Assembly: GCA_038062835.1 (NCBI GenBank)
Contig: JBBTWH010000003.1
Coordinates: 2,666 to 66,665 of the forward strand
Reading direction: 5' to 3'
From: Patescibacteria group bacterium
GTDB lineage: Bacteria > Patescibacteriota > Patescibacteriia > SG8-24 > DYFX01
DNA: 64,000 bases
Made by a program: the position numbers and the translations under genes. Below the pieces are notes generated by a model. It made no database searches and had not been told where the DNA came from. It worked only from the letters and a program-made list of their open reading frames with translations. Of this stretch, positions 8,336 through 64,000 are shown one piece after another; the first letter of the stretch is position 1; every line of letters starts with the position of its first letter.

Positions 8336-8338
8336 AAA

Positions 8339-9535: not shown

Positions 9536-10123
9536 GACGCTGTCGAGCATGGACATCGGTCCGGCGATGTTGGCGTCATAGGCGTCCGCCGGCGCGATGA
9601 CCGCATACAAGAGATAGCGCTTCTGGCCGCTGCCGATCTCCTGGACGCCCTGGTATACCTTGATCTTCGTGCCGTCGTCCTTGGATTCCTCGGACGTGAA
9701 TGACCATCTTCCGCTTGGTTCCTGCGCGAGCGCGCCGGTCGCTCCGGCTGGCAGGGAGCCGGCGATGTACTTGTGTAAGGCCTCGGCTATGGCCTTGAGA
9801 TCAAGGTCGTCGCTGCTGACGGGGCGGAGGAAGACCGCGACTGGCACGTGCGGAAGGAAGAGCATGAACTGCATCGAGCCGTCGTCCTGGGGCAGTGGCT
9901 TGCCCTGCCAGCCATTGCCGGGGAGGGTGAGCTTGAAGCCCAGGGCGTTGAACTTGAGGGTCGCGCCATCCTGCTCGACTGCCGGCTTCTCGGCCGTATC
10001 CGGCGTCTTCGCGATCTTCTGATCCTGCTTGAGCGGCGGGTTCGACGTCTTGGGGCCAGACGCGGCGGCGGAGCCGCAGGCGGCCAGGGTGAATGCCAAC
10101 AGGACTGCCAGGATTCTCATCAT
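9524..10123 (-). CDS. Lipoprotein (hypothetical)
   Basis: MMRILAVLLAFTLAACGS signal plus lipobox; AAGGAG SD. Confidence 0.6.
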   Translation of the reverse strand: MMRILAVLLAFTLAACGSAAASGPKTSNPPLKQDQKIAKTPDTAEKPAVEQDGATLKFNALGFKLTLPGNGWQGKPLPQDDGSMQFMLFLPHVPVAVFLRPVSSDDLDLKAIAEALHKYIAGSLPAGATGALAQEPSGRWSFTSEESKDDGTKIKVYQGVQEIGSGQKRYLLYAVIAPADAYDANIAGPMSMLDSVAPL

Positions 10124-13548: not shown

Positions 13549-13642
13549 TTCCCCCTCTTGAAGCAAGAGGGGCAGGGGGAGTTATGCTCGAGGGGATAAC
13601 CCCTCCGGCCTTCGGCCACCTCCCCTTGCGTCAAGGGGAGGA
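13549..13642. repeat. GC hairpin repeat unit (family copy 1) between xseA and xseB
   Basis: TCCCCCTCTTGAAGCAAGAGGGGCAGGGGGAGTT...GAGGGGATAACCCCTC...GGCCTTCGGCC...CCTCCCCTTGCGTCAAGGGGAGG; last hairpin encloses the xseA stop. Confidence 0.6.
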
Positions 13643-48529: not shown

Positions 48530-51180
48530 TGGATGATCATGCCCGGGGCGACGACAGGGAGCCCTCTCACTTCGCGGCCGTCCAGCGGCGCGGCGTTGCC
48601 GGAGTCCGAGTCCATCCAGAGGAACTCCTCGGCGCCGAACAGCTCGACCCCGAGGCTCCTCTGTCCGACAGGGAAGGCGCTCGTCCTCAGGCCGAGCGCG
48701 AAAGTCGCCGTCTCGCCGGCCTCGATCGCGAGCTCGGAACCCGAGGCGAAATCGATCTCGACGTAGCCGGCGTCGACCGTCGCGCTGTCGCGTCCTTGCG
48801 GCGTGGAGTCCTTGCCGCTCTGCGTGTACATGCCGTAGCGGATCGACGCGTCGCTCCCCTCTCCGATGACTTCAGCGCCGGAAACGGAAATCTTGCGCAG
48901 GTCGATGACGTCGTTGTCGTCGATGACGTCGCCGTCGATGTCGGCCCAGCGTTCGAGCGCATCGTTGTCCGCGCCATCCGTTCCCGCGTCGCCGGCCTTG
49001 ATGCGGAAGACCATTCGCTTCACGCGCGCGCGGCCTTCCGGTCCGGCCGTCAGCGTGAAGCGCAGGACTTCCTCGGACGCGCCGCGCGCGATGGGGCCGC
49101 TAGGCGTCGCGTAGGCCCGCGAAGCCGAAAGTTCCGTCAGCCGGAGCTGCAGGTCGGCCGCGACGTTCGAGGTCACGGCGAAACCATGGCCCGCAGCGAG
49201 ATCCGTCCCGCTGAAATCGCGGCCCTCCGTCACCGAGGCGAATCCGAAGTTCCGGTCCGCGGCGAACCGGAACCGGAGGCGCGCGCCGGATACGCTCGCA
49301 TACGATTCGACGACGTCAGCCTGGAAAGAGATGTAGGCCTTCTTGTCTTTTGGGACGTGGATGGCGAGGCCCTTGAAGAAGGCGTCGCCGCCGACGAACT
49401 CTCCCGTCACCGAGACGTTCGCGCCCTTGGCGTCGATATAGAACAGCCGGAGGGCACCGATCGGCGCGCGGTCCACGCCGGTGAACGGGAAGGTGAGGCT
49501 CGTGATGGTGAAATCGTCGTACGACGCCGCGGCGACGATGTTGCCGAGCTCGACCGGGCGGCCGACGACGGCCTTGGCGGAACTGCCGGCGAAATCGAGC
49601 GCCAGCGTACCGTGCTGGCGGACCGTCAGCGCGTACACGGGACGCGTGCCGCCGTTCGGGGCGGTCCCGTACGCCTCGACCGCGTCGCCGGAGGCGTCGA
49701 CGATGACGACGTCCTTCGCCGCGTCGACGACGTCGAAGGCGACGATGTCGGGGCGCGCCTCAATCTGGGCGTCGCGATCCAAGTCCCCGCGCAGGGCGTA
49801 GACGCCGGCCGAACCGGCGGGCAGGACGAGTGCGAGGCCCTCGAATCGCACGCGGCCGTCGTACGGCACCTCGACGGGCCCCGCGACGCGCGCGCCGGAC
49901 TGGTCATGCAAGCTGACGGCGCCGACGATATCGCGGACGCGCGTCTCGGTCCCGTTGTCCGCGTCGCCGCCCGCGAGGTAGCCGGCGCCGCCTTCCTGCT
50001 CGTCGAGATATCCCTGGAAAGCGATGGCGCGCAGCGTCTGCGTCAAAGCGGCGGCGTTGAACGTGAAAGCCGCGAGTTCGACGCTCTGGGCGCCGCGCAC
50101 CTGCGTCTTCGGACCATGGAACTCCGCAGCGGCGATCTCGAGCGCGTCCTTGCGCACCTGGACGATCCCGCCCGCGAGATCCGTCTTGGGAAGGAACGCG
50201 GCCGGACGTCCGTCCGCGCCGAAGACTTCCGCTCGCGAAGTCACGGCGATGGCGCGATACGGTTCGGCGATCGGCGTCTCCTCATCGAACGTCGCCGTCA
50301 GCCGAAGACGGGTCTCCCCTGCCGGAACCCTCAATCCGCCCGCGAATTCGAGGACGTACTCCTGATCGTCGGACGTGGACAAGGAGACGTCGAGCGTGCC
50401 GAAGACGGACGCGCCGCCGGCGTCGACGAAGCGTATCCTCGTGAGATTCGCACGGACGGAATCTCCGCGGACGAGGCCGCCCAAATCACGATCCGCGATG
50501 CCGGACAAGGCGGTCAACTTCACGGGCAGGCGCCGGATCTCGAGCGGAACCGACGTCGCGAGCAGGAGTTCCATCAGCGCGGCCTCCTTGCCGGCCGTGG
50601 CGATCGTGCTGACGGGCGCGAGGCTGAACGTCGGCGTCGAAGGCAGGACCGCCGGCGCCGCGCCCAGACGCCTGTCCTCGGAGATGGTCGGCGCCGAGGC
50701 TTTCTCGGCCGACGGGTCGAATCCGTCGCAGGCGATGATCGGATCGCCGAGGCGATAATTCGTGAAGGACTCGACTGGAACATCCTCGACAGCTCCGCGC
50801 CACGCCGAACCGTACAGGCAATCCGCGATGCCTTCCGAAGCGACGTGCCGCAAGACGCCGCCGCGCGCGACCGCGTAGGTCTTCGGGTCGGTGTCGATCT
50901 TGACCAAGCGCGTGCCGGGGCGATAGGTGACGTTCCCGCCGATGCGGCGCGACGACATCTCCGATGCCGAAATCGTCCTCACCGTGCCGAAGCCTTCGTA
51001 CCAGCTGAAGAAGACCGAGGTGCCGGTGAAGACGTAGCGCATGCCGTCGGTGCCGAGATAATAGACGGCGGGATCGGACGATGTCCTGATGAGATCCCCG
51101 GCGGAAGCGACCGAAAAAGGCTTGGGCGCGAAAAACCCGATGACGGCGAGAGCACAGACGATGAATAGCCACCGGCGCAT
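48526..51180 (-). CDS. Giant secreted surface protein, paralog 2 (about 884 aa from ATG MRRWLFIV)
   Basis: Same architecture as paralog 1; table start is a TTG; the ATG at 51180 lies 8 nt after a TGCTATACT extended -10. Confidence 0.7.
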   Translation of the reverse strand: MRRWLFIVCALAVIGFFAPKPFSVASAGDLIRTSSDPAVYYLGTDGMRYVFTGTSVFFSWYEGFGTVRTISASEMSSRRIGGNVTYRPGTRLVKIDTDPKTYAVARGGVLRHVASEGIADCLYGSAWRGAVEDVPVESFTNYRLGDPIIACDGFDPSAEKASAPTISEDRRLGAAPAVLPSTPTFSLAPVSTIATAGKEAALMELLLATSVPLEIRRLPVKLTALSGIADRDLGGLVRGDSVRANLTRIRFVDAGGASVFGTLDVSLSTSDDQEYVLEFAGGLRVPAGETRLRLTATFDEETPIAEPYRAIAVTSRAEVFGADGRPAAFLPKTDLAGGIVQVRKDALEIAAAEFHGPKTQVRGAQSVELAAFTFNAAALTQTLRAIAFQGYLDEQEGGAGYLAGGDADNGTETRVRDIVGAVSLHDQSGARVAGPVEVPYDGRVRFEGLALVLPAGSAGVYALRGDLDRDAQIEARPDIVAFDVVDAAKDVVIVDASGDAVEAYGTAPNGGTRPVYALTVRQHGTLALDFAGSSAKAVVGRPVELGNIVAAASYDDFTITSLTFPFTGVDRAPIGALRLFYIDAKGANVSVTGEFVGGDAFFKGLAIHVPKDKKAYISFQADVVESYASVSGARLRFRFAADRNFGFASVTEGRDFSGTDLAAGHGFAVTSNVAADLQLRLTELSASRAYATPSGPIARGASEEVLRFTLTAGPEGRARVKRMVFRIKAGDAGTDGADNDALERWADIDGDVIDDNDVIDLRKISVSGAEVIGEGSDASIRYGMYTQSGKDSTPQGRDSATVDAGYVEIDFASGSELAIEAGETATFALGLRTSAFPVGQRSLGVELFGAEEFLWMDSDSGNAAPLDGREVRGLPVVAPGMIIQ

Positions 51181-51187
51181 ATGAATG

Positions 51188-51199
51188 AAGTATAGCAAA
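51188..51199 (-). promoter_or_regulatory. Extended -10 TTTGCTATACTT 8 nt upstream of the giant paralog 2 ATG
   Basis: Identical to the element at 39286..39297. Confidence 0.45.
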
Positions 51200-51310
51200 T
51201 CTGACTGCGGGCGGCGGCCGAAACGCTTCGTGACGAAAATGCGACACCTGTCGCAAAACGGTACACGAGGGTTTTTAGCGGGGTTTTTTGAGGATGGATG
51301 AAGGAAAGAG

Positions 51311-51338
51311 AAAACCCCCTCGTTGCGGAGGGGGTTTT
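51311..51338. terminator. Bidirectional intrinsic terminator (AAAACCCCCTCGTTGCGGAGGGGGTTTT)
   Basis: Perfect hairpin flanked by A- and T-runs; 15 nt after giant paralog 3 stop. Confidence 0.7.
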
Positions 51339-51352
51339 CGTTCTCGGGATTT

Positions 51353-54300
51353 TTACGGCATCAGGACGCTCTGGGCGTCGGTCGGGAGGACTTCGACGTA
51401 GAGGCCGTTGGTCCAGTCGTCGGACGCGGCGGCGTCGGCGGCGTCGTCCGTGGCTCCGCTGACGTCGTTATGCGGGATGGCCGAGTTGTCGGACCAGGCG
51501 AAGTTGTAGATCGCGGTCGCGGCATTGGTACCGTCGAGGTCGTCGACGCCATCGGCATCCACGGCGACGCTGGCGAGTTCGCCGGTGACGAGGTCCGTGT
51601 CGGACGCGATGTTCGTGATGAGCGAGTGGTTGGAGGCCGCGCCCGCGACCGTGAGCACGAGCTCGTAGGTCTTGGAAGCGCCAGCCGAGATGACCTGCTC
51701 ACTGGTGAAGCGGCTCTGGAACGTGCAGGCGGTGCCGCCGTTCGATGCGCAGCCGATCGACTGCGTGGTCGTGCCTGAGATATGCGCCCCCTGGCCGACC
51801 TCGCGGACGGCCGACTGGCCGCCGCCGTTCGCGATGAGCATGCCCGCGTTCGACTTGGTGACCGCCCATTGGATGGCCTTGAGCGAAACCTGCTCGGCGA
51901 CGTCCGCCGTGACCGTGATGCGCGAGAGGACCATCGTGCCGTTGGTGAGCGTGGACGTCGGGAGCGACGCCAGGCTGACGGTCGGCTTGGTCTTGCGGAG
52001 GACCTTGTTGCGACCCGTGACGTCCGTCGTGGCGATCGTGGAGACCACCGTGCTGGAGCCAGTACCGCGGTACTCGAAGGTACCGGCGGTCGGGGTCGTG
52101 AGGTCTGTCGTGATCTGGAGGTCAGCGCCCGAAGTGGCGCCGCCGGAGATCGAGTTCAGGATGGCCTTGACCGTGAGGGTCTTGGAGGCATCCTTCGGAA
52201 CCACGAAGTTGAAGCCCGAGAAGTCGGCGTTCTGGCCGGACATCGGGACCGGACCGGCGACGAGCGCGGCCCCGTCGTAGAGACTCATGCTGACGACGCT
52301 GTTCTGGACCGCGCCCACGAGCGAGATACGGATCTTGGTCTGCTTCAGTTCTTCGTTGGCGGCCGTGAGGCGGATCTTGCCGAGCACAGCGGTGGTGTTG
52401 GCGAGGACGAGGCCTGCTTCGGACTCGGTGTCGTCCGGAGCGATCTGGTACGTCATCGTGCCGGAGTTCGCGGTCGTCAGGACCACGCTCGGCGTGCCGT
52501 TGATCGGGAAGGAGGCGGCGGCGAAGGAGACGCTGTTGCCGACGGCGTCCTGGACCGTGGCGTCCGTGTTGGCGACGACCTTGAAGGCGATGCGCTCCGC
52601 GTTCGAGTTCAGGTAGGCGCCGTTCGAGAGGTCGCAATACAGCAGACCTGTCGCGCCGATGGAATCGATGTCCCAGTCCAGTCCGGCGAAGGTCATCACG
52701 CCGCCGGTGCCGGAAGTCGGACTCTTCGGCTGGCCGCGCATCGCTCCGGTCGCGGCATCGATCAGCCAGCAGGAAGTGATGACGTCGGAGACGGAGACCG
52801 TGCCGGATACGTCGACGTCCTGGCCCTGCACGTAGTCGGAGGAACCGTCAGCGTCGATGAAACCCTTGATCGTCAAAGACGACAGCTTCGTGACCGTGCC
52901 GGTCTCAGAGCCGAACGAAAGGCCTAGCGCGAGAATGGAGGTCGCGCCCTTCACGTACGACTGCGAGACGGCGAGGCTATTGAGGCCGGCGCCGAGATAC
53001 GCGGAATACATCGTCTGCGCGAAACCGGCCATATCGCCCGACGGGACGACGTCCGATGACGGCGTCAAGAAGGTAGAGTTATCGGTATTACGAAGGTCGG
53101 ACGTGCCGAACGCGAGGCGCGTAGCCGTGACCGACTCGCCGCTCGTGATGGAGGTCGAGGCGTCCGCCGTGACGGCGAACTCATAGACGACTCCCGGTTC
53201 GAGCGACTGGACGTCGGTGAACGTCAGCGTCTGGTTCAGGTCGTTGGCGCCGGCGTCGCCCGTGCCGGAGAGGTCGGACGGACCCCACCAGGCGGCGCCG
53301 GAAGTCGTATTGATGATTTTTACGTCGGTGTAGTTCGGCGTGGAGGTGTTGATGAGGCCGCTGGCGCCCGCGCCGGAGGTGCTGGCGGTGAGCTTGATCT
53401 GCATGCGGCGGACTTCCGTGCGGTTCTGGACGACCATCGTGAAGCGCAGGAGCTCGGCGTCCTTAGCGTAGGTCGCGCGGTCGGTCGGGAACGGACCCTT
53501 GAGCGCGACCGTGACCGGACCCGCTTCCACCGTCGAGTACGAGCAGTCGCCAGCCGAGCTGGTGCAGCTGTCGCCGTCGTAGGCGGTGCGGGTGACGGTG
53601 ACGCCCTGGCCGAAGGTCTGACCGACGCCGCGGACGTCCGAGGACTCTTCGGTGTAGAGCTTCAGGCTGTCAGCGGCGCGAGCGCCGCCGCCGATGTCGC
53701 CGTAGACCTGGAAGGTCTTGGTGGCGCCCTTCTCGAGCAGCATGCCCGGAGCGGAGAGGGAGAACGTCGCGCGGAGGTTGGCGTCGAAGCTAGCCGCCGT
53801 CGCGATCGTGAGACCCGCCTGCTTGAGCTTGAGGTTCGTGAGGTTGGCCGCGGAGAGGTTGCCACCCTGGAAGATGGTCAAGCGCTCGAAGCGGACGTCT
53901 TCGGAGGAGCCGGCGGCGACCGTGAACTCGGCGATCTTCGCCTCCATCTCGCCGGCCTTGGGGGCCGTGATGGTGCCGGTCTTGGCGATGGTGAGAGAAC
54001 CCACCGTCGTGCCAGCCAGGGTGAAGTTGTTGCCGGTGAACGGAGAGCCGGAGAGCTGCGTGGTTCCGGACATCGCCTTGGAGAGTTCCATGGCGTGGAC
54101 GTTGCCGGCAGCCGCGCCCGTCGCGATGTCGACGGCGACCCACAGGGTGCGGGTCTGGCCGGCGGCGAGCGAGAGGTTGAGGCCCGTGAAGGTGACCTCG
54201 TTGGTGGACGAGTTGACGGAGCGGCCCGTGGTCAGACGGGAAGAGCCCTCGTACAGGTACACCGAGGAGAGGTCGGTCGTGGCGCCGGGGCCGACGCGGC

Positions 54301-55012
54301 GGAGGGTGACGGAGTCAGCCACCATCGCGGAGCCGCCGTTGTTCGAGACGTTGAACTTCAGGAAGTTCACGCCCGTCGCGCCCTTCGGAAGGGTCGCGCC
54401 AGCCGGCGAGTCAGAGGCGAGCGAGACGGAAGCCGTGCCCGAGACGCCAGCGGTCGACAAGTTCTTGTCGGCGTTGATCGACTGGGACGAGCTCATCTCG
54501 GCCGTCTTGTTGTAGTCGGAGCAAGACGCGTTGATGGCGGCGCCGACGGAGTAGTTCGTGAAGAACGCGTCCGAGACGTCGTGAATCATCGTGTTCCAGG
54601 CCGAGCCGTACAGGGTGACGGCGCAGGCCTCGGAAGGCACGTGGCGAAGGACGCCGCCGTGCGCGATCGCGTAGGTCTTCGGGTCAGACTGGATCTTGAG
54701 CATCAGCACGCCCGGGCGATAGGTGACGTTGCCACCGATCTGGATGGACGCGAGGTCAGCGTCGGAGATGGTCATGACGGACGAGAAGTCCGCGTACCAG
54801 GTCTTGTAGGCCTTGTCGTTGGTGAACACGTAGCGCTTTCCGTCGGAACCGCAGTAGTACACCGCGGGGAGGGAACCCTTGATCAAGCTACCGCTCGTGC
54901 AGCCGGCGGCAGACGCTTTCAAGGGAGCGACCAGGACGGACGCCATCATCGACCAAAGGATGGTCGAGAGGACGATGCCCACGGTCAAGCTTTTTCGGAA
55001 CGTGTCTGACAT
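51353..55012 (-). CDS. Giant secreted surface protein, paralog 3 (1219 aa)
   Basis: Signal peptide MSDTFRKSLTVGIVLSTILWSMMASVLVAPLKASAAG; shared N-terminal module; about 490 aa identical to paralog 4. Confidence 0.75.
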   Translation of the reverse strand: MSDTFRKSLTVGIVLSTILWSMMASVLVAPLKASAAGCTSGSLIKGSLPAVYYCGSDGKRYVFTNDKAYKTWYADFSSVMTISDADLASIQIGGNVTYRPGVLMLKIQSDPKTYAIAHGGVLRHVPSEACAVTLYGSAWNTMIHDVSDAFFTNYSVGAAINASCSDYNKTAEMSSSQSINADKNLSTAGVSGTASVSLASDSPAGATLPKGATGVNFLKFNVSNNGGSAMVADSVTLRRVGPGATTDLSSVYLYEGSSRLTTGRSVNSSTNEVTFTGLNLSLAAGQTRTLWVAVDIATGAAAGNVHAMELSKAMSGTTQLSGSPFTGNNFTLAGTTVGSLTIAKTGTITAPKAGEMEAKIAEFTVAAGSSEDVRFERLTIFQGGNLSAANLTNLKLKQAGLTIATAASFDANLRATFSLSAPGMLLEKGATKTFQVYGDIGGGARAADSLKLYTEESSDVRGVGQTFGQGVTVTRTAYDGDSCTSSAGDCSYSTVEAGPVTVALKGPFPTDRATYAKDAELLRFTMVVQNRTEVRRMQIKLTASTSGAGASGLINTSTPNYTDVKIINTTSGAAWWGPSDLSGTGDAGANDLNQTLTFTDVQSLEPGVVYEFAVTADASTSITSGESVTATRLAFGTSDLRNTDNSTFLTPSSDVVPSGDMAGFAQTMYSAYLGAGLNSLAVSQSYVKGATSILALGLSFGSETGTVTKLSSLTIKGFIDADGSSDYVQGQDVDVSGTVSVSDVITSCWLIDAATGAMRGQPKSPTSGTGGVMTFAGLDWDIDSIGATGLLYCDLSNGAYLNSNAERIAFKVVANTDATVQDAVGNSVSFAAASFPINGTPSVVLTTANSGTMTYQIAPDDTESEAGLVLANTTAVLGKIRLTAANEELKQTKIRISLVGAVQNSVVSMSLYDGAALVAGPVPMSGQNADFSGFNFVVPKDASKTLTVKAILNSISGGATSGADLQITTDLTTPTAGTFEYRGTGSSTVVSTIATTDVTGRNKVLRKTKPTVSLASLPTSTLTNGTMVLSRITVTADVAEQVSLKAIQWAVTKSNAGMLIANGGGQSAVREVGQGAHISGTTTQSIGCASNGGTACTFQSRFTSEQVISAGASKTYELVLTVAGAASNHSLITNIASDTDLVTGELASVAVDADGVDDLDGTNAATAIYNFAWSDNSAIPHNDVSGATDDAADAAASDDWTNGLYVEVLPTDAQSVLMP
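53519..54987. repeat. 1469-bp segment identical to 58028..59496 (5' parts of giant paralogs 3 and 4)
   Basis: Identical antisense table ORFs 53718..54515 and 58227..59024 (offset 4509) plus my own line comparison of both edges. Confidence 0.85.
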
Positions 55013-55110
55013 ACAAACGGGCCCAGGTTAGGGGTAAATGCCCGTCCAGTGTAGCAGGTACGGAAACGAAAAAGGTGTGGGTAAGACCCGCACCTTCTCC
55101 CCCGCTCCGT

Positions 55111-55413
55111 TCAGGACAGGACCAGCCGTTTGTCGGCGATCGTGATGACGTCCTTTTTTTGGAGAACGTTGATCAAGGAGTTGACCTTGCCGTCGGTACG
55201 ACCGAGGCTGCGATCAAGAGTCTCCAGGCGATGATCGACGCGGTCGAGACGGGTTTCGACGCCATCAAGACGAGTTTCGACGCCATCAAGACGAGTTTCG
55301 ACACGGTCGAGACGGCCCCGAATATCCTCGAATTGCGGCGTGATGTTGTGCTCGATGACGTTCCCCAACTCCTCGCCGATCAGCTTGATGTCTTCGGGTG
55401 TAAGCATGCCCAT
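55111..55413 (-). CDS. Small coiled-coil protein with tandem heptads RLDGVET (paralog of 31263..31643)
   Basis: MGMLTPEDIKLIGEELG...TRLDGVETRLDGVETRLDRV; conserved promoter; start trimmed to MGM. Confidence 0.55.
   Translation of the reverse strand: MGMLTPEDIKLIGEELGNVIEHNITPQFEDIRGRLDRVETRLDGVETRLDGVETRLDRVDHRLETLDRSLGRTDGKVNSLINVLQKKDVITIADKRLVLS
55243..55312. repeat. In-frame 21-bp tandem repeat (GTTTCGACGCCATCAAGACGA, 2 full copies plus partial flanking copies) inside gene 55111..55413
   Basis: Direct reading of 55243-55312. Confidence 0.6.
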
Positions 55414-55436
55414 ATGGTTAGAGGATAACATATGGG

Positions 55437-55467
55437 GTCCTAGCACAGGCAATATGTGGGGTGTCAA
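55437..55467 (-). promoter_or_regulatory. Conserved promoter TTGACACCC...TGCTAGGAC (paralog of 31668..31697)
   Basis: Same -35/extended -10 and spacing. Confidence 0.5.
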
Positions 55468-55498
55468 CGCTTAGAGTCGGCTCCGGCCTTGCATAAAC

Positions 55499-55823
55499 AA
55501 TCCCCCTCTTTGTGAAAGAGGGGGCAGGGGGAGTTAGGTCGGAGGGCCATCCGAGCTAACCCCTCCGCCCTTCGGGCACCTCCCCTTTCGCAAAGGGGAG
55601 GACGTTTAAAAGAATCCCCCTCTTTGTGAAAGAGGGGGCAGGGGGAGTTATTCGGAGGGGCGTGGGCCTACGATTCGGAGATAACCCCTCCGCCCTTCGG
55701 GCACCTCCCCTTTCGTAAAGGGGAGGACGACTGACAGAATCCCCCTCTTTGTGAAAGAGGGGGCAGGGGGAGTTATTCGGGGAGGACGTATAAACACAAA
55801 CCCCCTCCTTGCGGAGGGGGTTT
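55499..55823. repeat. Tandem array of 3 GC hairpin repeat units (about 115-125 bp period; third unit truncated and ending in a terminator-like hairpin)
   Basis: AATCCCCCTCTTTGTGAAAGAGGGGGCAGGGGGAGTTATTCGG...ATAACCCCTCCGCCCTTCGGGCACCTCCCCTTTCGTAAAGGGGAGGACG repeated; GUGA, UUCG and CGNA-type loops. Confidence 0.8.
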
Positions 55824-55900
55824 GCTCTTTCCGGGCCGCTTAGGCGAACCCTTGCGTACCGGCTAGATCCAGGCCGAAGCCCGAGGCGAGACTCGTCCTA

Positions 55901-58900
55901 TTACGGAGCAAGGGTCGTCTGAGCGTCGGTCGGGAGGACCTTGACGTACAGGCCGTTGGTCCAGTCGTTCGACGCAGCCGCGTCTTCGCCTTCGGCAATG
56001 GTGCCGGCGACGTCGTTGTGCGGGATGGCCGAGTTGTCGGACCAGTGGATGCTGAAGCCGGCAGTCGCAGTGTTCGTGCCATCGAGGTCGTCGATGGAGT
56101 CACCCGCGAGACCGTCGACGTCGTCGAGTTCACCCGTGACCAGCGCGGAGTCCGCGGCGATCGTGGAGGTGATGCTGTCGTTCGAGCCGACGCCCGTCGT
56201 CGTGACGGCGAGTTCATACGTCTTGGACGTACCCGCGGCGATCACCTGTTCAGAGGCGAACGTGAAGCGGACCGTGCAAGCGTCGGACTCGAGCACATCG
56301 CAGTCGTCGTCGCCGGCCTCGTCGAGGTCAGCGGTGCCCGAGATGGAGGAGCCGCCGACCTCGCGGACCACCGGGGTCGCGATGCCGAGCGCGGCGCCGC
56401 GAGCGAGGTTCCACATGATCGACTTGACCGAGACCTGTTCCGCGCTGTCAGCCGTGAGGGTGATGCGCGAGACCACGGGCGTGCCGTTGGTGAGCGTGGA
56501 GCTCGGGAGCGAGGCCAAGCTGACGGTCGGCTTGGTCTTGCGGAGGATCTTCGTGCGCATCGTGACGTCCGCACCGGTGGCCTGGGTGGTCACGACGGTC
56601 GAGGACGAGGTGCCACGGTACTCGAACGTGCCAGCGGCAGCCGAGGTCGTGTCAGCGATGAGCGCGAGGTCGGTACCCGTGGTGGCACCGCCCGAGATCG
56701 TGTTCAGGACGCCCTTGACCGTGAGGGTCTTGGAGCCGTCCTTCGGCACGACGAAGTTGAAGCCGGAGAAGTCAGCGTTGCCACCGGTGAGCGGAACCGG
56801 ACCAGCGACGAGCGCGGCCCCATCGTAGAGGCTCATGCTGATGACGTTGTTCGAGTTCGCCGAGGTGACGAGGCCGACGCGAAGCTTGGTCTGCTTCAGC
56901 TCTTCGTTGAGAGCCGTGAGGCGGATCTTGCCGAGGACAACCGTGTTGCCCGCGACCACGAGGCCCGCTTCGGACTCCGTGTCGTCCGGAGCGATGATGT
57001 ACGACATCGTGCCGGTGTTCTGGATGGTGTGGACCACCGTGGCGGCAGAGGCGTTGACCGTGCCGGTTTCGGTGATCGCGTTGCCATCCGCATCCTGCGA
57101 CGTGACATCGCTCGCGGCCTGGACGGAGAAGCCGACCGTGTCGGCGTCAGCGCCGTCGAAGGCGGAGTTCGAGATGTCGCAGTTGAGCTTCAGGCTCTTG
57201 GTCTGGCCAGCCGCCACCACGAGGTTGAGGCCGGTGAACTCAAGGAGACCGCCAGAGCCTTCCGTCGAGGAAGCGGTCGGAGACTTGGCCGTGCCAAGCA
57301 TCGTCGCGCCATCCATGAGGCGGCACTGGGTGATGACGTCGCGGACCGCGGCGTCATCCGTGTTGTCGTCGAAGCCCTGGATCATCGTGGTGCCGCCATC
57401 GGCGTCGATCCAGCCCGTGGCCGTGATCGCCGTGATGGTGACAGGCGCGGCATCGCCGGCCTTCAGGTTGATGCCAGTGAAGTCGACGTTCGAGGAGCCC
57501 TTGATGAAGGTCTGGCTGACCGGGGTCGAGCCAAGCGAGTTCGTCATGGACGCCACACGGACCGTCATCGCGTTACCCAACAGCGAGCCGCCCGGGACGA
57601 CGTCGGTGGACGGCGTCAGGAACGTGCTGTTGTCGAGGTTGCGGAGGTCGGAGGTGCTGAAGGCTTCGAGGGTCATGGTGACCGTGTCAGCATCGTCAGC
57701 GCCGTCCTCCACGTCGAGCGAGACGGAGAACGTGTACAGGACGCCGGCCTGGAGGGTCTGGACGTCGTTGAAGACGAGATCCTCGGAGCCGTCATCTTCC
57801 GTCACGTCCTTCGGGCCCCACCAGACGGAACCGGAGGCGACGTTGGTCACCTTGATGTCCGTGAGGTTAGCCGTAGTCGTCATGAGGTCGGTGCCGTCAA
57901 TCTGCATGCGCAGGTTGCGGACTTCGACGTTGGACTGGGCCACCGCGGTGAAGCGGAAGACCTCAATCTCGTTCCCCTTCTCGCTGATGTCCTTCGAGGA
58001 AGGGCCCAGGAAGTTGAGGGTCACCTGTCCCGCTTCCACCGTCGAGTACGAGCAGTCGCCAGCCGAGCTGGTGCAGCTGTCGCCGTCGTAGGCGGTGCGG
58101 GTGACGGTGACGCCCTGGCCGAAGGTCTGACCGACGCCGCGGACGTCCGAGGACTCTTCGGTGTAGAGCTTCAGGCTGTCAGCGGCGCGAGCGCCGCCGC
58201 CGATGTCGCCGTAGACCTGGAAGGTCTTGGTGGCGCCCTTCTCGAGCAGCATGCCCGGAGCGGAGAGGGAGAACGTCGCGCGGAGGTTGGCGTCGAAGCT
58301 AGCCGCCGTCGCGATCGTGAGACCCGCCTGCTTGAGCTTGAGGTTCGTGAGGTTGGCCGCGGAGAGGTTGCCACCCTGGAAGATGGTCAAGCGCTCGAAG
58401 CGGACGTCTTCGGAGGAGCCGGCGGCGACCGTGAACTCGGCGATCTTCGCCTCCATCTCGCCGGCCTTGGGGGCCGTGATGGTGCCGGTCTTGGCGATGG
58501 TGAGAGAACCCACCGTCGTGCCAGCCAGGGTGAAGTTGTTGCCGGTGAACGGAGAGCCGGAGAGCTGCGTGGTTCCGGACATCGCCTTGGAGAGTTCCAT
58601 GGCGTGGACGTTGCCGGCAGCCGCGCCCGTCGCGATGTCGACGGCGACCCACAGGGTGCGGGTCTGGCCGGCGGCGAGCGAGAGGTTGAGGCCCGTGAAG
58701 GTGACCTCGTTGGTGGACGAGTTGACGGAGCGGCCCGTGGTCAGACGGGAAGAGCCCTCGTACAGGTACACCGAGGAGAGGTCGGTCGTGGCGCCGGGGC
58801 CGACGCGGCGGAGGGTGACGGAGTCAGCCACCATCGCGGAGCCGCCGTTGTTCGAGACGTTGAACTTCAGGAAGTTCACGCCCGTCGCGCCCTTCGGAAG

Positions 58901-59530
58901 GGTCGCGCCAGCCGGCGAGTCAGAGGCGAGCGAGACGGAAGCCGTGCCCGAGACGCCAGCGGTCGACAAGTTCTTGTCGGCGTTGATCGACTGGGACGAG
59001 CTCATCTCGGCCGTCTTGTTGTAGTCGGAGCAAGACGCGTTGATGGCGGCGCCGACGGAGTAGTTCGTGAAGAACGCGTCCGAGACGTCGTGAATCATCG
59101 TGTTCCAGGCCGAGCCGTACAGGGTGACGGCGCAGGCCTCGGAAGGCACGTGGCGAAGGACGCCGCCGTGCGCGATCGCGTAGGTCTTCGGGTCAGACTG
59201 GATCTTGAGCATCAGCACGCCCGGGCGATAGGTGACGTTGCCACCGATCTGGATGGACGCGAGGTCAGCGTCGGAGATGGTCATGACGGACGAGAAGTCC
59301 GCGTACCAGGTCTTGTAGGCCTTGTCGTTGGTGAACACGTAGCGCTTTCCGTCGGAACCGCAGTAGTACACCGCGGGGAGGGAACCCTTGATCAAGCTAC
59401 CGCTCGTGCAGCCGGCGGCAGACGCTTTCAAGGGAGCGACCAGGACGGACGCCATCATCGACCAAAGGATGGTCGAGAGGACGATGCCCACGGTCAGAGC
59501 CTTGCGGCTCATTTTCAGGACTTCGGTCAT
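55901..59530 (-). CDS. Giant secreted surface protein, paralog 4 (about 1209 aa from MTEVLKMSRK)
   Basis: Same signal peptide and module as paralog 3, divergent central region, conserved C-terminus (NGLYVKVLPTDAQTTLAP). Confidence 0.75.
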   Translation of the reverse strand: MTEVLKMSRKALTVGIVLSTILWSMMASVLVAPLKASAAGCTSGSLIKGSLPAVYYCGSDGKRYVFTNDKAYKTWYADFSSVMTISDADLASIQIGGNVTYRPGVLMLKIQSDPKTYAIAHGGVLRHVPSEACAVTLYGSAWNTMIHDVSDAFFTNYSVGAAINASCSDYNKTAEMSSSQSINADKNLSTAGVSGTASVSLASDSPAGATLPKGATGVNFLKFNVSNNGGSAMVADSVTLRRVGPGATTDLSSVYLYEGSSRLTTGRSVNSSTNEVTFTGLNLSLAAGQTRTLWVAVDIATGAAAGNVHAMELSKAMSGTTQLSGSPFTGNNFTLAGTTVGSLTIAKTGTITAPKAGEMEAKIAEFTVAAGSSEDVRFERLTIFQGGNLSAANLTNLKLKQAGLTIATAASFDANLRATFSLSAPGMLLEKGATKTFQVYGDIGGGARAADSLKLYTEESSDVRGVGQTFGQGVTVTRTAYDGDSCTSSAGDCSYSTVEAGQVTLNFLGPSSKDISEKGNEIEVFRFTAVAQSNVEVRNLRMQIDGTDLMTTTANLTDIKVTNVASGSVWWGPKDVTEDDGSEDLVFNDVQTLQAGVLYTFSVSLDVEDGADDADTVTMTLEAFSTSDLRNLDNSTFLTPSTDVVPGGSLLGNAMTVRVASMTNSLGSTPVSQTFIKGSSNVDFTGINLKAGDAAPVTITAITATGWIDADGGTTMIQGFDDNTDDAAVRDVITQCRLMDGATMLGTAKSPTASSTEGSGGLLEFTGLNLVVAAGQTKSLKLNCDISNSAFDGADADTVGFSVQAASDVTSQDADGNAITETGTVNASAATVVHTIQNTGTMSYIIAPDDTESEAGLVVAGNTVVLGKIRLTALNEELKQTKLRVGLVTSANSNNVISMSLYDGAALVAGPVPLTGGNADFSGFNFVVPKDGSKTLTVKGVLNTISGGATTGTDLALIADTTSAAAGTFEYRGTSSSTVVTTQATGADVTMRTKILRKTKPTVSLASLPSSTLTNGTPVVSRITLTADSAEQVSVKSIMWNLARGAALGIATPVVREVGGSSISGTADLDEAGDDDCDVLESDACTVRFTFASEQVIAAGTSKTYELAVTTTGVGSNDSITSTIAADSALVTGELDDVDGLAGDSIDDLDGTNTATAGFSIHWSDNSAIPHNDVAGTIAEGEDAAASNDWTNGLYVKVLPTDAQTTLAP
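58028..59496. repeat. Second copy of the 1469-bp identical block
   Basis: See 53519..54987. Confidence 0.85.
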
Positions 59531-59723
59531 AAGTTGAGAACCTTTCTTCAAGTTTAGTGCCGACAGTACGGCCTTGCGGCCTCGACCTTGTGATACTGCC
59601 AGTGCCCCAAAGGGGCGGGCCCGTCCGGAGATTTCCTCCTGGATCGGAGCGCGGGGCGTACTCACATAGAGGAGTAGGCCACGAGCTTCGATCCAAGAAG
59701 CTTCCTGGACGGACGGTGGATAT

Positions 59724-60791
59724 TTATGGTTGGGAGGAAGCGGGCTCGATCTCGGGCGCCGGGGTCTCGGAGACCTCTTCGGTGCTCGTCGCGGCTTCGG
59801 TCTCCGCTTCAGCGGGTTCCTCGACGGGCGGATTCTTGTCGGCGGACTCGGCTTCGGTGACGAGGTCGGCGCCTTCGCTGACCTTCTTTACGGCGGCGCG
59901 GAAGTCGCCTTGGGAGAGCAGTTCTTTGGCCTCGTCCACCGCGGCCTGGGCTTTAACGGTCAGGAGCTGGCTGGGAGAGGCGGCGCCGCTCGTCAGGCCG
60001 TCCTGCGTGGTGGCCACGTGGGCGGCGAAGGCGTCGATCTTGCGTCCGACGGCCGAGGAGAGCTGGGCTTCAGGTAAGACGTTCGAGGCGAAGCTTTGTT
60101 TCTCGACCAGGATTTCGAGCGCCTTCACGGAGACTTGGTCCAGGTTCAGGAGCGCCATCCGGAAGGAGGGGCGTCCGACGAACAGTCCGTGTTTGAAGAT
60201 CGCTTGGTATTCGTCGGCTTTGGATTCGACCCGGCTGGCGATGCGGACGGCTTCGTCGGCGTCCTTTTCATCCTGGAGGTCGGAGAGGTCCTTGCGGACG
60301 GCGTTCATCTCGTCGGAGAAGAGCGCGGCGACCATCTCGATCTTCCCTTCCCTGCCGAGGTCGGGACTGGAGGCGAGGCGGGCCATCTCGTTGAGACGGC
60401 GGCCGGCGATCTCGACGCGGCGCTCGGTGCGGTCCGACTTGCGGGAGAGCTTGAGGTTCAGAGACTCCGCGGCGAGCTTTACGTTATAGAGGGGGTGGCC
60501 AGGCAAGGTGTCGTGCGCGGCGGCGACGACGGCCGTGGAGCCGACGCCGGTGCCGACGACCAGGAGCAGGACCATCGCGGGAATGGCCATGGCCTTGGCG
60601 AGGTTTTCAGGGAAGAAGACGCGCAGGGATTCGGCGAATGCGCGAAGACCGGTCCGGCGCTCAGCGCCGACCGTGTTGCCGATCTGCATCATCAGGGTCT
60701 CTTTCGTGGAAACGAGCCATTGCGCGTCCGGGCTTCCGCCCGCACGCTCATGCTTCAACGCCTTCAGTTGTTCCACGATCTGGGTCCGCAT
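59724..60791 (-). CDS. Putative anti-sigma factor (single-pass membrane protein immediately downstream of the ECF sigma)
   Basis: Position downstream of and overlapping the sigma gene; TM helix MAIPAMVLLLVVGTGVGSTAVVAAA; Ala/Glu/Thr-rich acidic C-terminal tail; start trimmed to MRTQIVEQ. Confidence 0.5.
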   Translation of the reverse strand: MRTQIVEQLKALKHERAGGSPDAQWLVSTKETLMMQIGNTVGAERRTGLRAFAESLRVFFPENLAKAMAIPAMVLLLVVGTGVGSTAVVAAAHDTLPGHPLYNVKLAAESLNLKLSRKSDRTERRVEIAGRRLNEMARLASSPDLGREGKIEMVAALFSDEMNAVRKDLSDLQDEKDADEAVRIASRVESKADEYQAIFKHGLFVGRPSFRMALLNLDQVSVKALEILVEKQSFASNVLPEAQLSSAVGRKIDAFAAHVATTQDGLTSGAASPSQLLTVKAQAAVDEAKELLSQGDFRAAVKKVSEGADLVTEAESADKNPPVEEPAEAETEAATSTEEVSETPAPEIEPASSQP

Positions 60792-61356
60792 GGGATTTTT
60801 CGTCAGTCGCGACCAAGTCGCGCAGGGCGTCAGTCGCGCGATGCAGGAGCACGCGCACGTTGCCGTTGGTCTTGCCGAGGATCCTGGCGATCTCCGAAGT
60901 CTCGAGTTCATCGAGATACTTCATCACGAGCACTTCGCGATATTCATCCTTGAGCAGGCGAAGCTTCTTCTCCAGCATCTTCGCGTCGATGGCCGCGTTG
61001 ACCTTCTTGAGATCCATGCGGTCGTCGGCGATCATCTCCTCGGCCCCTTCGGTCAGAGGGAGAGTCTCGCGGTTCGCGCGCGACCGATAGAAATCGATCA
61101 CGCGGTTGCGGGCGATGCTATAAAGGAGCGCGCTCAAGTGGCGGACCTCTCCGCCCTTTTCGTCGAGAAGGAAGGACCAGGCCTTCAAGAAGACGTCAGC
61201 GGTGAGGTCTTGCGCCTCTTCCTCCGACGAAACCTTAAAGTACACGAAACGATAAATCCGGCGTGCATAGAGGTCGTAGATCTTCCCGTATGCTTCCGGA
61301 TCCTTTTTCGCGCGTACCCGATACAACAGCAACTTCTCTTGGAGTGGGTTGCTCAT
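60748..61356 (-). CDS. ECF-type RNA polymerase sigma-70 factor
   Basis: Region 2 (IYDLYARRIYRFVYFKVSSEEEAQDLTADVFLKAW) and region 4 HTH (LDELETSEIARILGKTNGNVRVLLHRATDALR); start trimmed. Confidence 0.85.
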   Translation of the reverse strand: MSNPLQEKLLLYRVRAKKDPEAYGKIYDLYARRIYRFVYFKVSSEEEAQDLTADVFLKAWSFLLDEKGGEVRHLSALLYSIARNRVIDFYRSRANRETLPLTEGAEEMIADDRMDLKKVNAAIDAKMLEKKLRLLKDEYREVLVMKYLDELETSEIARILGKTNGNVRVLLHRATDALRDLVATDEKSHADPDRGTTEGVEA

Positions 61357-61500
61357 GACTTTAGACGGGCGACCGAGTGATACCGTTACAGTCAGCCCTA
61401 TAACGAGGTTCAGGCTATCATGAAAGGTAGGCAGAGTCAAAGGTATAACTTCGTAAGAATAAGGCTACGGAGCTTAACCGAAGAGGTAACATTAGGGACG

Positions 61501-61567
61501 GAACTCCCCCTTGGCACCCCGAATAACTCCCCCTGCCCCCTCTTTCGCAAAGAGGGGGATTTTTTTA
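61501..61567. repeat. GC hairpin repeat (module A, reverse orientation) ending in a plus-strand intrinsic terminator
   Basis: AACTCCCCCTGCCCCCTCTTTCGCAAAGAGGGGGATTTTTTT. Confidence 0.65.
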
Positions 61568-61575
61568 GGCCTATT

Positions 61576-61616
61576 TGACAAAATGTGGTTGTTTGTCTAC
61601 ACTGGAGTAGACAAAT
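61576..61616 (+). promoter_or_regulatory. Promoter (TTGACA, 17 nt, TACACT) overlapped by the 9-bp inverted repeat TTTGTCTAC-n6-GTAGACAAA upstream of the HTH gene
   Basis: Direct reading; dyad centred on the -10. Confidence 0.45.
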
Positions 61617-61628
61617 AGATTATCCCCC

Positions 61629-61928
61629 ATGGACTCCCCTAAACACATCATTCGCGTCTCAGTTTCGGAGGCGGCCAAGCTCTTCGGCATTTCCACGCGC
61701 ACGCTCCGCCGCGCCATCGCCGACGGCGAGGTGGCCTATGTGGTGGTGCGGGGAAGGTATAAGCTGAACTTCGAGAGCCTCGTGAAGTGGTCGCAGGTCC
61801 GCCCGACCGTGCGCAACAAGCTGGCCACGACCGGCATCGGCCAATTCGTGGAGCAATGGAAGATCAGGAACAAATTGTTCAGTCCCAATCCGAAGGTGTT
61901 CGAGAAGAAGGATGGGGAGGAGAAGTAG
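61629..61928 (+). CDS. Helix-turn-helix DNA-binding protein (excisionase/MerR-like HTH_17)
   Basis: SVSEAAKLFGISTRTLRRAIADGEV; 99 aa; lower-GC context. Confidence 0.6.
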   Translation: MDSPKHIIRVSVSEAAKLFGISTRTLRRAIADGEVAYVVVRGRYKLNFESLVKWSQVRPTVRNKLATTGIGQFVEQWKIRNKLFSPNPKVFEKKDGEEK

Positions 61929-61942
61929 AGCGGCGATTCGGA

Positions 61943-62036
61943 AATAACCCCTCCGCCCTGCGGGCACCTCCCCTTTCGTAAAGGGGAGGGTATACAAAGG
62001 ATCACCCTCTTTGTGAAAGAGGGGGCTGGGGGAGTT
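61943..62036. repeat. GC hairpin repeat (module B followed by module A)
   Basis: ATAACCCCTCCGCCCTGCGGGCACCTCCCCTTTCGTAAAGGGGAGG...ATCACCCTCTTTGTGAAAGAGGGGGCTGGGGGAGTT. Confidence 0.65.
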
Positions 62037-62062
62037 CGATCCGGGCTGGGTCGCCCCGCCGA

Positions 62063-62091
62063 TCTGACGGTTGACATTCGGCCTTAAACGT
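62063..62091 (+). promoter_or_regulatory. Promoter TTGACA, 17 nt, TGCTAGAGT (extended -10) for gene 62117
   Basis: Direct reading; same TGCTAG-type extended -10 as the heptad-gene promoters. Confidence 0.4.
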
Positions 62092-62116
62092 GCTAGAGTC
62101 CCCCGTTAAAAAGCGA

Positions 62117-64000
62117 GCGGTTCCCATGCATGACGCCCGCGTACAATCCGTCGCTTTGACCCTCGCGATCGTGACGATCGTGAGTTTCGTCGTGCCTGCG
62201 GAGACGCTGGCGGCCACGGCCTCGGACAAGTTCGTCCGCCTCTCCAACAACTACATGAAGGCGGGCATCACGCTCCCCTCTTCTGACTGGGCGACGCTCT
62301 CGAAGTACGACGTGCTCGTGCTTCCGGCCGAGGCGCAGATCTTCAACCCGGATTTCTTCCCGACAGTGCGCCGCTTGAACCCGGACATCGTCATCTTGGC
62401 GTACATTCCCACCAAGAGCTACGCGCAAGTCTGGAGCGACAACCCGATGGACACGCTCCATCCCAAGCTCAAGGCGCGCACCGACGAATCGATGCGGCTG
62501 CGCGAACCCGGAGGCAAGATCCTGTCCGTCTGGCCGGGGACGCTTTCGTATAACGTGAACTCCGGTTGGGCCGATGCGCTCCCCCGCTTCGTGAAGGAGG
62601 ACATCATGGCCTCCGGCAAATGGGACGGCATCTTCTACGACGAGACTTCGGCCACCATCTCGTGGCTCAACGGCGGCAACGTCGACGTGAGCGGCGACGG
62701 TTTGAAGGACGATCAGGCCACGGCTGACCGACTATGGGAGGCCGGGATGGTCAAAATTTTGAAGACCACCCGCGAACTGCTCGGCGCTTGCGCGGTCATC
62801 ATCACCAACGGCGATTCCGACCCGGACCTCCAGCCGTACGTCAACGGCCGCATGTTCGAGACGTTCCCGACGCCGTGGGAATACGACGGCAGCTGGGCCA
62901 CCGTCATGAACAACTATCTCGGGTTGCAGAAGAAAGTCGGCTACCCGGCCGTCTTCCTCATCAACAGCAACACGAACAACACCGGCAACAGGGACGATTT
63001 CCAGAAGATGCGCTTCGGACTGGCCTCGACCTTGATGGGCGACGGCTTCTTCCAGTTCGACTACGGCGACAACGATCATGGCCAGACCTGGATGTACGAC
63101 GAATACGACGCCTACCTGGGCAAGCCTGTCGGCGAGGCGCACAACCTGACGGGTCAGACCAATCCCGTGAGGGACGGCGTCTGGCGCCGTGACTTCCAGC
63201 ACGGAACCGTCATCGTGAACTCCACGAACGAAGCCAAGACCGCGGACCTCGACGCCGATTTCGAGCGCCTGCACGGCGCGCAGGATCCCGCCGTCAACAA
63301 CGGCGAGATTTCCAGCGTCGTGACGATTCCCGCCAAGGACGGCCTCATCCTCCTGCGTCCGCTCGAGCGCGTCTCCGAAGCCGCCTACAGGAACGGCGCC
63401 TTCATGCGCATCCTCACCGGCGAAGGCGCGGTCCATCGCAACGGCTTCTTCGCCTACGACGAGCGCCGAAAGGGCGGCGTCGACCTGGCCGAGTTCCGCC
63501 CTGCGGCGTCGAGCGAGAAATCCACCATCGTCGCGAAGGGCAATCACCTCGAACTCTACGACGCGCAGGACCGGCTCGTGCGTTCCGTCGCCCCGTTCGG
63601 CGACAGCTGGAACCGCGGACTGACCTTCGGCTACGGCAAGGCCGGCGGCAAGACCTACGTCGCCGCGGGCGCGGGGCAAGGCGGCGCTCCGTACGTGCGC
63701 ATCTATACGGAAGGTCTCGAGCCCGTCACCGACGCGTTCTTCGCCTACAGCGAGCGATTCCTGGGCGGCGTGAACGTGGCGGTCGGCGACCTCGACGGAG
63801 ACGGAAGTCCCGACGTCGTAGCCGGCGCCGGTCCGGGCGGAGGGCCGCACGTGCGCGTCTTCAACAAGGACAAGGCCGTGATGGCGCAGTTCTTCGCCTA
63901 CGACCAGCGGTTCCGCGGCGGCGTGTACGTCGCGATGGGCGACGTCGACGGCGATAAGACCCAGGAAATCGTGACCGGTCCGGGCTTCGGCGGCGGACCG
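62117..64000 (+). CDS. Secreted glycoside-hydrolase-like (GH114/GHL-type TIM barrel) protein with C-terminal FG-GAP repeats (partial; runs off right edge)
   Basis: My own translation of 62117-64000 gives 628 codons without a stop: signal peptide, then VLVLP...IVILAYI...GIFYDE...NGRMFE barrel-like strands, then GDLDGDGSPDVVAGAGPGGGPHVRVF / GDVDGDKTQEIVTGPGFGGGP FG-GAP repeats; absent from the ORF table because there is no stop in the window. Confidence 0.55.

Follow-up and report, generated by a model that had tools for sequence, protein, structure and literature searches.

Bacteria of the Patescibacteria, also called the candidate phyla radiation (CPR), are presumed to spend their lives attached to other cells, and very little has been learnt of their surface proteins. 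In the pilE/pilS system of Neisseria, as in vlsE of Borrelia and msp2 of Anaplasma, many silent and truncated donors convert the variable part of the gene situated at one expression site. Gene conversion between bacterial paralogs has been described for tufA/tufB and the rRNA operons (survey in PMC6053082) and for antigen families of Mycobacterium tuberculosis (PMC13061034). The sap locus of Campylobacter fetus encodes the surface layer (S-layer) homologues sapA and sapB (Dworkin et al. 1995 and Tu et al. 2003, as cited in PMC4943207). In the current analysis we have studied a pair of genes, referred to as p3 and p4, encoded in a 64,000-nucleotide (nt) stretch of contig JBBTWH010000003.1 of a Patescibacteria group bacterium (GCA_038062835.1), the whole of which is called the window. 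They are probably two real and complete tandem genes, the N-terminal module of which (amino acids (aa) 9-498 of p3) has very recently been made identical, most likely by non-reciprocal gene conversion. The parts of the pair are as follows.

51353-55012, minus strand: p3, secondary gene for a putative surface protein of ~1,200 aa (1,219 aa) with the variable body of p3 type; open reading frame (ORF), exact protein present as NCBI AAB554_01020
55901-59530, minus strand: p4, primary gene for a putative surface protein of ~1,200 aa (1,209 aa), directly downstream of an extracytoplasmic function (ECF) sigma factor gene and a DUF5667 protein gene, as in all relatives
53520-54987, minus strand: R1, the repeat copy in p3, codons 9-498; conserved N-module with anchor helix, dom1 and two beta-sandwich domains
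58029-59496, minus strand: R2, the repeat copy in p4, codons 12-501; exact match to R1
52493-53519, minus strand: hypervariable middle of p3, aa 499-840, 31-52% aa identity and synonymous divergence (dS) of 0.91 to p4
about 57010-58028, minus strand: hypervariable middle of p4, the counterpart of the p3 middle in the alignment of the two

The two genes share a direct repeat of 1,468 bp without a single mismatch (53520-54987 and 58029-59496, offset 4,509 bp), which extends in p3 from the second base of codon 9 through the second base of codon 498 and accounts for 490 identical residues in both proteins. A first-pass annotation of the window had described a block of about 490 codons in two direct copies about 4.5 kb apart, starting one base earlier at 53519 and 58028. 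The number of codons, the orientation and the spacing are confirmed and the repeat is indeed exact, but its proposed first base is a mismatch (A at 53519, T at 58028). Beyond this edge the identity drops abruptly to ~50% within 40 nt, and above 54987 the copies are unrelated. No other repeat longer than 180 bp at an identity of 80% or more is present in the 64-kb window. Since an exact repeat arising by chance would be expected to reach only ~15-16 nt in 64 kb, a chance origin of the block is excluded. The end of the block coincides with a domain boundary predicted in the AlphaFold2 (AF2) model of the protein.

The same module differs from its closest orthologues by 10.3-12.7% of the nucleotides, with a dS of 0.23-0.31, and at this divergence ~150-185 differences are expected over the block, of which none is seen. 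Selection cannot keep synonymous sites identical and the block has no synonymous difference, a very recent exchange being therefore indicated. Recent gene conversion, as proposed in the first-pass annotation, is the best-supported reading of a synonymous count of zero set against 10-13% nucleotide difference between orthologues and a dS of 0.6-0.9 elsewhere in the two genes. The paralogs are 100% identical at the nucleotide level in the block, as compared to at most 89.7% (at most 92% in aa) with the best orthologues.

The block has sharp edges and lies within sequence that is homologous but diverged, dS between p3 and p4 being 0 in the block, 0.91 in the middle and 0.61 in the C-terminal part. 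Weak homology can be followed past both of its ends, in the residues FRKS-L of p3 as compared to SRKA-L of p4 on the 5' side and at 31% aa identity right after the 3' end. The complete divergence once proposed for the region past the block is not borne out, as the proteins are still alignable at 31-52% aa identity over aa 499-840, and the similarity said to be regained at the C-terminus is indeed found (45-78% over aa 841-1219). The low-level homology past both ends therefore points to a tract inside diverged homologues and not to a fresh duplicate of the whole gene.

The relationships of the block and of the body are also discordant in matrices of segment identity. The middle of p3 pairs with that of the relative P0002 (82% aa) and the middle of p4 with that of P0007 (80%), with only 40% between p3 and p4. 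The C-terminal part of p4 pairs with P0007 as well (86%). Body and C-terminus of p3 and p4 are thus each closer to relatives elsewhere (P0002, P0007) than to one another. These closer relatives, together with the dS of 0.91 and 0.61 between the two genes, indicate that p3 and p4 are not recent duplicates generated in situ. The genes flanking the pair in the window have a dS of 0.28-0.65 to those of one related locus (L003).

Recombination of the RecA type is dependent on long runs of perfectly matching sequence. With orthologous N-modules the repeat has 10-13 perfect runs of 25 bp or more in common, reaching 117 bp, and p3 and p4 have only two such runs (29 and 27 bp) outside the block. The comparison of the sequences suggests homologous recombination as the probable mechanism. 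The converted tract would be the entire segment similar enough to recombine, and conversion would halt at either end, where the homology is lost. The bodies and C-termini, which are old and separately evolving allele types, would have been left unconverted.

The pair resembles the paralogs known for concerted evolution in that the copies are identical over a tract while orthologues differ, in that the tract is embedded in diverged sequence and confined to the segment with long runs of perfect match, and in its discordant phylogeny. Unlike cases of the tufA/tufB type, p3 and p4 are homogenised in the 5' 40% only, the rest consisting of different ancient allele types, and unlike long-lasting conserved duplicates the pair is specific to its lineage and probably young. 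The closest functional analogy is the sap family of C. fetus (PMC4943207), which has a conserved N-terminal part (responsible for cell binding in sap) followed by divergent sequence, adjacent glycosylation genes, chimeric alleles formed by recombination and repeats that hamper assembly, all of which have counterparts here. The same source describes 8-9 sap copies with silent homologues and a single promoter moved by inversion, whereas p3 and p4 are two direct copies with their own upstream regions and no inversion. There is no relationship in sequence or Pfam family between the two systems, and sap encodes S-layer homologues, whereas p3 and p4 are putative surface proteins. With pilE/pilS, vlsE and msp2 the pair shares homologous recombination through conserved blocks situated beside variable segments of a surface protein. 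It differs from them in that the conserved part has been converted and both genes are intact.

A survey of ~165 loci of the family, including 80 from species representatives and 79 from metagenomes, has revealed one other tandem pair, so that such pairs occur in 2 of ~165 loci and ~163 are single-copy. The 80 species-representative and 79 metagenome loci contain no further tandem pair and no repeat internal to a gene, and no tandem pair with a diverged N-module is found among the loci surveyed. The second pair (L009) is encoded in an unrelated Patescibacteria metagenome-assembled genome (MAG) with 60% G+C (NCBI GCA_964471445.1, CAYYII010000002.1). Its tandem genes of 1,237 and 1,224 aa, ~50% identical in aa to p3, also follow a sigma factor and a DUF5667 gene. 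They share a perfect 5' block of 2,634 bp (3327-5960 and 7262-9895), which starts one base ahead of the ATG and ends just past the most conserved motif of the family (APDDTESEAGLV...RFTAQ), with 50-70% aa identity beyond it. The second copy of L009 is without the conserved leader described below and has an unrelated, AT-rich upstream region. In both pairs the perfect 5' block stops at the edge of the conserved segment, where the similarity of alleles collapses. Another MAG, SO_2017_GW1_96, has two copies on different contigs that are 88% identical and not homogenised. Contigs that begin or end in the N-module have been noted at L014, L017, L022-L024, L064, L078 and L083-L085, which suggests that short-read assemblies often break at the module, owing to repeats or to variation between strains.

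The N-modules of close relatives are 85-92% identical in aa, the middles fall into discrete types of 40-83% identity and the C-termini are mosaic; that of P0002, for instance, is closest to that of P0008. Among the best 120 matches, the N-terminal 480 aa are in many pairs 25-35 percentage points more conserved than the rest. As the N-terminus is conserved above the rest across the family, the combination of a conserved anchor and a variable body characterises the family, and the sequences point to allelic recombination that is evidently common within it.

Two further paralogs, p2 and p1, follow p3 in the window. The description of p3 and p4 as giant paralogs in the first-pass annotation is fair, p1 and p2 (~890 aa) being another subfamily that shares only the first domain of ~150 aa with them. 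Six syntenic contigs from related populations (L003-L008) encode one gene of ~1,200 aa after the sigma and DUF5667 genes and none or one of ~900 aa. In the close relatives the copies of the latter number none in L004 and one each in L003, L005 and L007, and the window has two. Comparison at the DNA level identifies p4 with its flanks as the orthologous copy and p1 as the orthologue of the single ~900-aa gene, and also suggests that a small ORF between p4 and p3 is ancestral, as L007 and L010 have it too. Relatives having a single gene and p4 and p1 being orthologous, p3 and p2 are therefore extra in the lineage of the window, and from this distribution p3, along with p2, may have been acquired horizontally. 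A search for homologues of p2 was uninformative with regard to the origin of p3 and p2, the best match being 57% identical.

One of the syntenic loci, L006, encodes P0002 at the primary site. This gene is of p3 type, with 84% nucleotide identity over the whole of p3, and has the leader, start codon and 3' flank of p4 type. The two types of body therefore represent alternative alleles, which different populations have at one and the same locus. We consider p3 best read as a captured alternative allele, the N-module of which was then overwritten by that of p4 or has overwritten it.

Both p3 and p4 are complete ORFs, each with a start codon, an anchor helix and a terminator, and their flanks are given below.

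55013-55110, minus strand: unique upstream region of p3, with the extended -10-like TGCTACACT at 55056-55048
51310-51339, minus strand: terminator hairpin of p3, 84% similar to that of p4
55798-55834, minus strand: predicted terminator hairpin of p4, followed by an A-B-A-B-A hairpin array (55495-55834 in all)
59531-59720, minus strand: conserved structured 5' leader of p4, lacking in p3, from an alignment of 13 loci

The start of p4 (MTEVLKMSRKA) and its leader are common to the orthologues. The start of p3 (MSDTFRKS) is compatible with a signal peptide, and its 5' and 3' flanks are both non-canonical. The upstream region of p3 had no BLAST match in any of the fetched loci or elsewhere in the window. 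Its TGCTACACT resembles TGCTATACT, found upstream of p2 and of the 900-aa gene of L007, and p3 may thus have a promoter of its own. The leader of p4, ~185 nt in length, is predicted to form 46 base pairs in the alignment, of which 17 have compensatory double changes, and has the invariant blocks GGATCGAAG...CTCCGATCCAGGAGG, CCGGACGGGCC and AGGTCGAGGCC-GCAA-GGCCG. Besides the window, it is situated upstream of the ~1,200-aa gene in L003-L010, L012-L014 and L097, and it precedes the primary gene only. A search of Rfam with 51000-62300 at E<=1 yielded sub-threshold noise only and no match for the leader, which could represent a new element with a cis-regulatory function or one that stabilises the mRNA.

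Several observations weigh against conversion between two genes of one genome. All the supporting contigs are from short reads (SPAdes-style names, ~14x coverage), and the repeat of 1.47 kb exceeds read and insert length, the tandem having been resolved from the topology of the assembly graph. Short-read assemblers could collapse small differences between copies. An independent contig, CAYHMA010000003.1, starts at window position 53574, 55 nt inside the edge of the repeat. The perfect identity could hide a few collapsed differences and the copies could number more than two. The repeat is 87-92% identical in aa to the N-modules of p3-type and p4-type relatives alike and would fit conversion in either direction; the events may have been one or more. 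The bounding of conversion by heterology rests on two tandem cases, and the horizontal origin of p3 and p2 on their absence in relatives, where losses are also possible. The risk of assembly collapse raised in the first-pass annotation is accordingly a legitimate one. In a rival reading, which we hold to be quite improbable, the tandem is a mis-resolved loop of the graph: two strains with different bodies on the same N-module, a hybrid gene accompanied by an excised circle of 4.5 kb, or copies of ~98-99% identity collapsed to 100%. Such an artefact fits a metagenome of this depth with a repeat longer than any read pair, the start of CAYHMA010000003.1 is the signature of an unresolved branch, and ~10 of the 80 species-representative contigs end inside the N-module. 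Against it, the inter-copy segment of 3,041 bp (54988-58028) runs into the repeat on either side through unique and sensible sequence, with the p4 body, the terminator, the small ORF, the promoter region of p3 and the p3 start in frame into the repeat in a sensible order. By the logic of the graph, the repeat-segment-repeat arrangement must therefore exist in some genome. Two different assemblies also give the same tandem, and a third breaks at the edge of the repeat. The proteins p3 and p4 are found verbatim on contig Hain_H41_02um_R1_207_length_78628_cov_14 of ENA ERZ1292633, from Hainich well H41 (0.2 um), and in the NCBI Patescibacteria group bacterium MAG (AAB554_01020, AAB554_01030). The window differs from the former by one single-nucleotide polymorphism in 18.1 kb (62789 T/G) and has the same tandem with identical copies, and is therefore another assembly of the same population with the same tandem structure. 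Sequences of 88% identity are not merged by assemblers, so the N-modules are at the minimum far more alike than orthologues, and the same pattern recurs in the unrelated MAG of L009.

The main biological rival is a recent partial tandem duplication or capture of an allele, in which the identity dates the birth of the second copy. The N-module would have been duplicated at the insertion of a foreign or alternative allele, or the 3' two-thirds of a whole-gene duplicate would later have been replaced by import. The rarity of tandem pairs, both of them young in the 5' block and none with a diverged N-module, agrees with such a birth, and the clearly mosaic alleles of the clade reveal that 3' replacement by recombination does occur. 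It would however need an in-frame fusion at codon 9 to an existing start with a promoter-like region and the signal-peptide-compatible MSDTFRKS. A crossover in the module should leave a zone of ~88% identity, whereas the perfect identity reaches the edge of homology in both cases, and the non-canonical flanks of p3 fit an older, independent gene. We regard this origin as unlikely, though with an appreciable chance of being right. The first-pass annotation had also raised a mechanism of variation as in surface-antigen loci. In a programmed form of it, the identical N-module would be kept as a recombination handle for the swapping of ectodomain cassettes behind a leader-controlled expression site, and the tandem would represent one state in the switching. 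The pattern itself stands, as the conserved anchoring 5' module with a hypervariable exposed body in discrete types is family-wide, and the structured leader on the primary copy only, the L006 arrangement of p4 leader and p3-type body that deletion between the repeats would generate, and the analogy with the sap homologues (PMC4943207 and references therein) are in keeping with it. Programmed switching does not follow: the copies are only two, both complete and apparently separately promoted, and their direct orientation makes an exchange a one-way deletion. No recombinase or invertase gene and no truncated cassettes are found among the neighbours and 30 other ORFs of the window, with ~163 of 165 related loci single-copy the family as a whole does not have a multi-cassette system, and no protein in the databases has the identical N-module on another body. 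A programmed system is for these reasons very improbable.

Other candidates have been considered and set aside. Site-specific inversion or a shufflon is rejected on account of the direct repeats and of the lack of any Pfam match to a recombinase, integrase or transposase among the neighbours or 30 other ORFs of the window, and a diversity-generating retroelement because the identical copies are free of A-specific mismatches and no reverse transcriptase is encoded among the annotated neighbours. No defining component of a mobile element was found. Cassette-type antigenic variation is rejected in view of the absence of silent, promoterless or truncated donors from the window, both genes being complete and p3 having a promoter-like motif. 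An array of donor cassettes is set aside because there are only two copies, which form the sole long repeat in the window, and related loci are single-copy.

Recent gene conversion could also form part of a cycle of capture and replacement, which we put forward tentatively and consider rather unlikely, in which the N-module is the recombination handle for ectodomain alleles of the major surface protein in these Patescibacteria. A foreign ectodomain allele would be parked in tandem and its N-module then homogenised. RecA-mediated deletion between the direct repeats of 1.47 kb would subsequently place the new ectodomain behind the leader linked to the ECF sigma factor, as in L006. Tandem pairs as short-lived intermediates would explain both their rarity and the constant presence of a perfect 5' block.

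Each of the ~1,200-aa proteins is predicted to comprise a membrane or signal anchor at the N-terminus, followed by an alpha/beta domain (dom1) and about eight immunoglobulin (Ig)-like beta-sandwich domains. No family has been assigned to p1-p4 or to dom1 alone in sequence searches of Pfam, NCBIfam and PDB. The AF2 models, built with an alignment of 30-32 sequences as input, are confident, with a predicted local distance difference test score (pLDDT) of 84 for aa 1-498 and 88 for the remainder. The N-module, which would be the part proximal to the cell, is modelled as a helix (7-22), dom1 (40-185) and two beta-sandwiches (194-498), and the remainder as about six more beta-sandwich domains. The best matches of both models in Foldseek are strings of Ig-like domains (E 7e-8 to 1e-16), namely the C-domains of AgI/II adhesins, PrgB and integrin legs, at 8-13% sequence identity and global template modelling scores (TM-scores) of 0.1-0.2; this is a resemblance in fold and not membership of a family. 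With the Ig-like adhesins of Gram-positive bacteria (C-domains of AspA, SspB and SpaP of the AgI/II family, and PrgB) p3 and p4 share the strings of beta-sandwich domains. They differ in having no LPXTG motif or evidence of isopeptide bonds, the resemblance being at the level of fold only.

The dom1 domain (~150 aa) is common to p1, p2, p3, p4 and an S8 peptidase encoded nearby at ~50% aa identity, with the motifs YY.G.DGKRY.F, IGGNVTYRPG and DAFF.NY. It is N-terminal in the four proteins and C-terminal in the peptidase, and looks like a common module for attachment to the envelope, for which it is a candidate. Searches of Pfam, NCBIfam and PDB revealed no S-layer homology (SLH) or other known domain in p3 and p4, and their fold is a generic Ig-like string. 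A surface or S-layer-like role may nevertheless be suggested for them, the glycosylation genes and the long conserved leader forming a suggestive context.

The family of p3 and p4 is large, with more than 449 matches scored; GTDB species representatives contain at least 566 relatives and JGI metagenomes at least 546. Wherever a match has an informative name, it belongs to a lineage of the Patescibacteria, for example Uhrbacteria, Falkowbacteria, Buchananbacteria and Parcubacteria. A search of the literature on S-layers and hypervariable surface proteins of Patescibacteria yielded nothing on this family. In a search of viral collections, one contig matched, to dom1 only. The protein that it encodes (IMG/VR UViG_3300033066_000406, L175 584-2089) is 501 aa long and combines a signal peptide with dom1 (46% aa) and Ig-like domains. 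Its gene is found in the vicinity of those for an adaptor of phage SU10 type and a transglycosylase-bearing protein, close to the end of the contig, and could thus be host flank.

The order of genes on the minus strand is ECF sigma factor, DUF5667 protein, p4, a coiled-coil ORF of 106 aa, p3, p2, p1, S8 peptidase, an epimerase and several glycosyltransferases. The neighbours of the pair are listed here.

60748-61356 and 59724-60791, minus strand: ECF-type sigma-70 factor and DUF5667 protein respectively, conserved upstream partners of the primary gene
55111-55431, minus strand: small coiled-coil ORF of 106 aa between p4 and p3, kept downstream of the ~1,200-aa gene in L007 and L010
48526-51180, minus strand: p2, paralog of ~884 aa sharing only dom1 with p3 and p4; extra in the lineage along with p3
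45845-48529, minus strand: p1, paralog of ~894 aa, orthologue of the single ~900-aa gene of L003 and L007
44157-45785, minus strand: S8 subtilase with dom1 at its C-terminus, from comparison of the domains

The genes p2 and p1 overlap by 4 nt (48526-48529) and their proteins are 47% identical in aa. The small ORF has three tandem repeats of 21 nt (VETRLDG) and weak matches of coiled-coil type, and is 87% identical in nucleotides over its first part to that of L007. Two GC-rich hairpin elements alternate as A-B-A-B-A, in units of ~114-125 nt, at 55495-55790 between the terminator of p4 and the small ORF, and the array has a folding z-score of -6.9. Further copies at 61508-61567 (inverted) and 61938-62048 flank an HTH_17 gene, a weaker one is seen near 13550-13595, and similar elements have been identified in the loci L003, L008, L010, L014, L031, L054, L128 and L141. 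From their sequence they look like repetitive extragenic palindromic (REP) or terminator elements. The rest of the window is ordinary chromosome, encoding ribosomal protein L10, XseA, MurG, FtsW, Lon and a histidine kinase; its G+C content is 65%, and third-position GC places the real genes of the locus on the minus strand. No publication on DUF5667 was found in a literature search.

The pair p3/p4 is a clean new example of a known phenomenon, gene conversion between paralogs of surface proteins, and its conceptual novelty is modest. Neither the protein family nor its regulatory neighbourhood nor the structured leader has been characterised so far. The locus defines a widespread and unannotated family with a conserved anchoring module, a hypervariable body in recombining allele types and a conserved regulatory neighbourhood that includes the ECF sigma factor, the DUF5667 protein, the structured leader, the S8 protease and glycosylation genes. 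In practical terms, it is a site at which MAGs assembled from short reads in this clade break or may have been joined wrongly. The perfect repeat points to homologous recombination actively reshaping the locus in a natural groundwater population, and a cell could as a consequence expose two distinct ectodomains on the same anchoring module. Through the direct repeats of 1.47 kb the 4.5-kb unit would moreover be easily lost or amplified, and its loss would leave the leader of p4 driving a p3-type protein, similar to L006. The locus thus provides a handle for asking how Patescibacteria change their surface.

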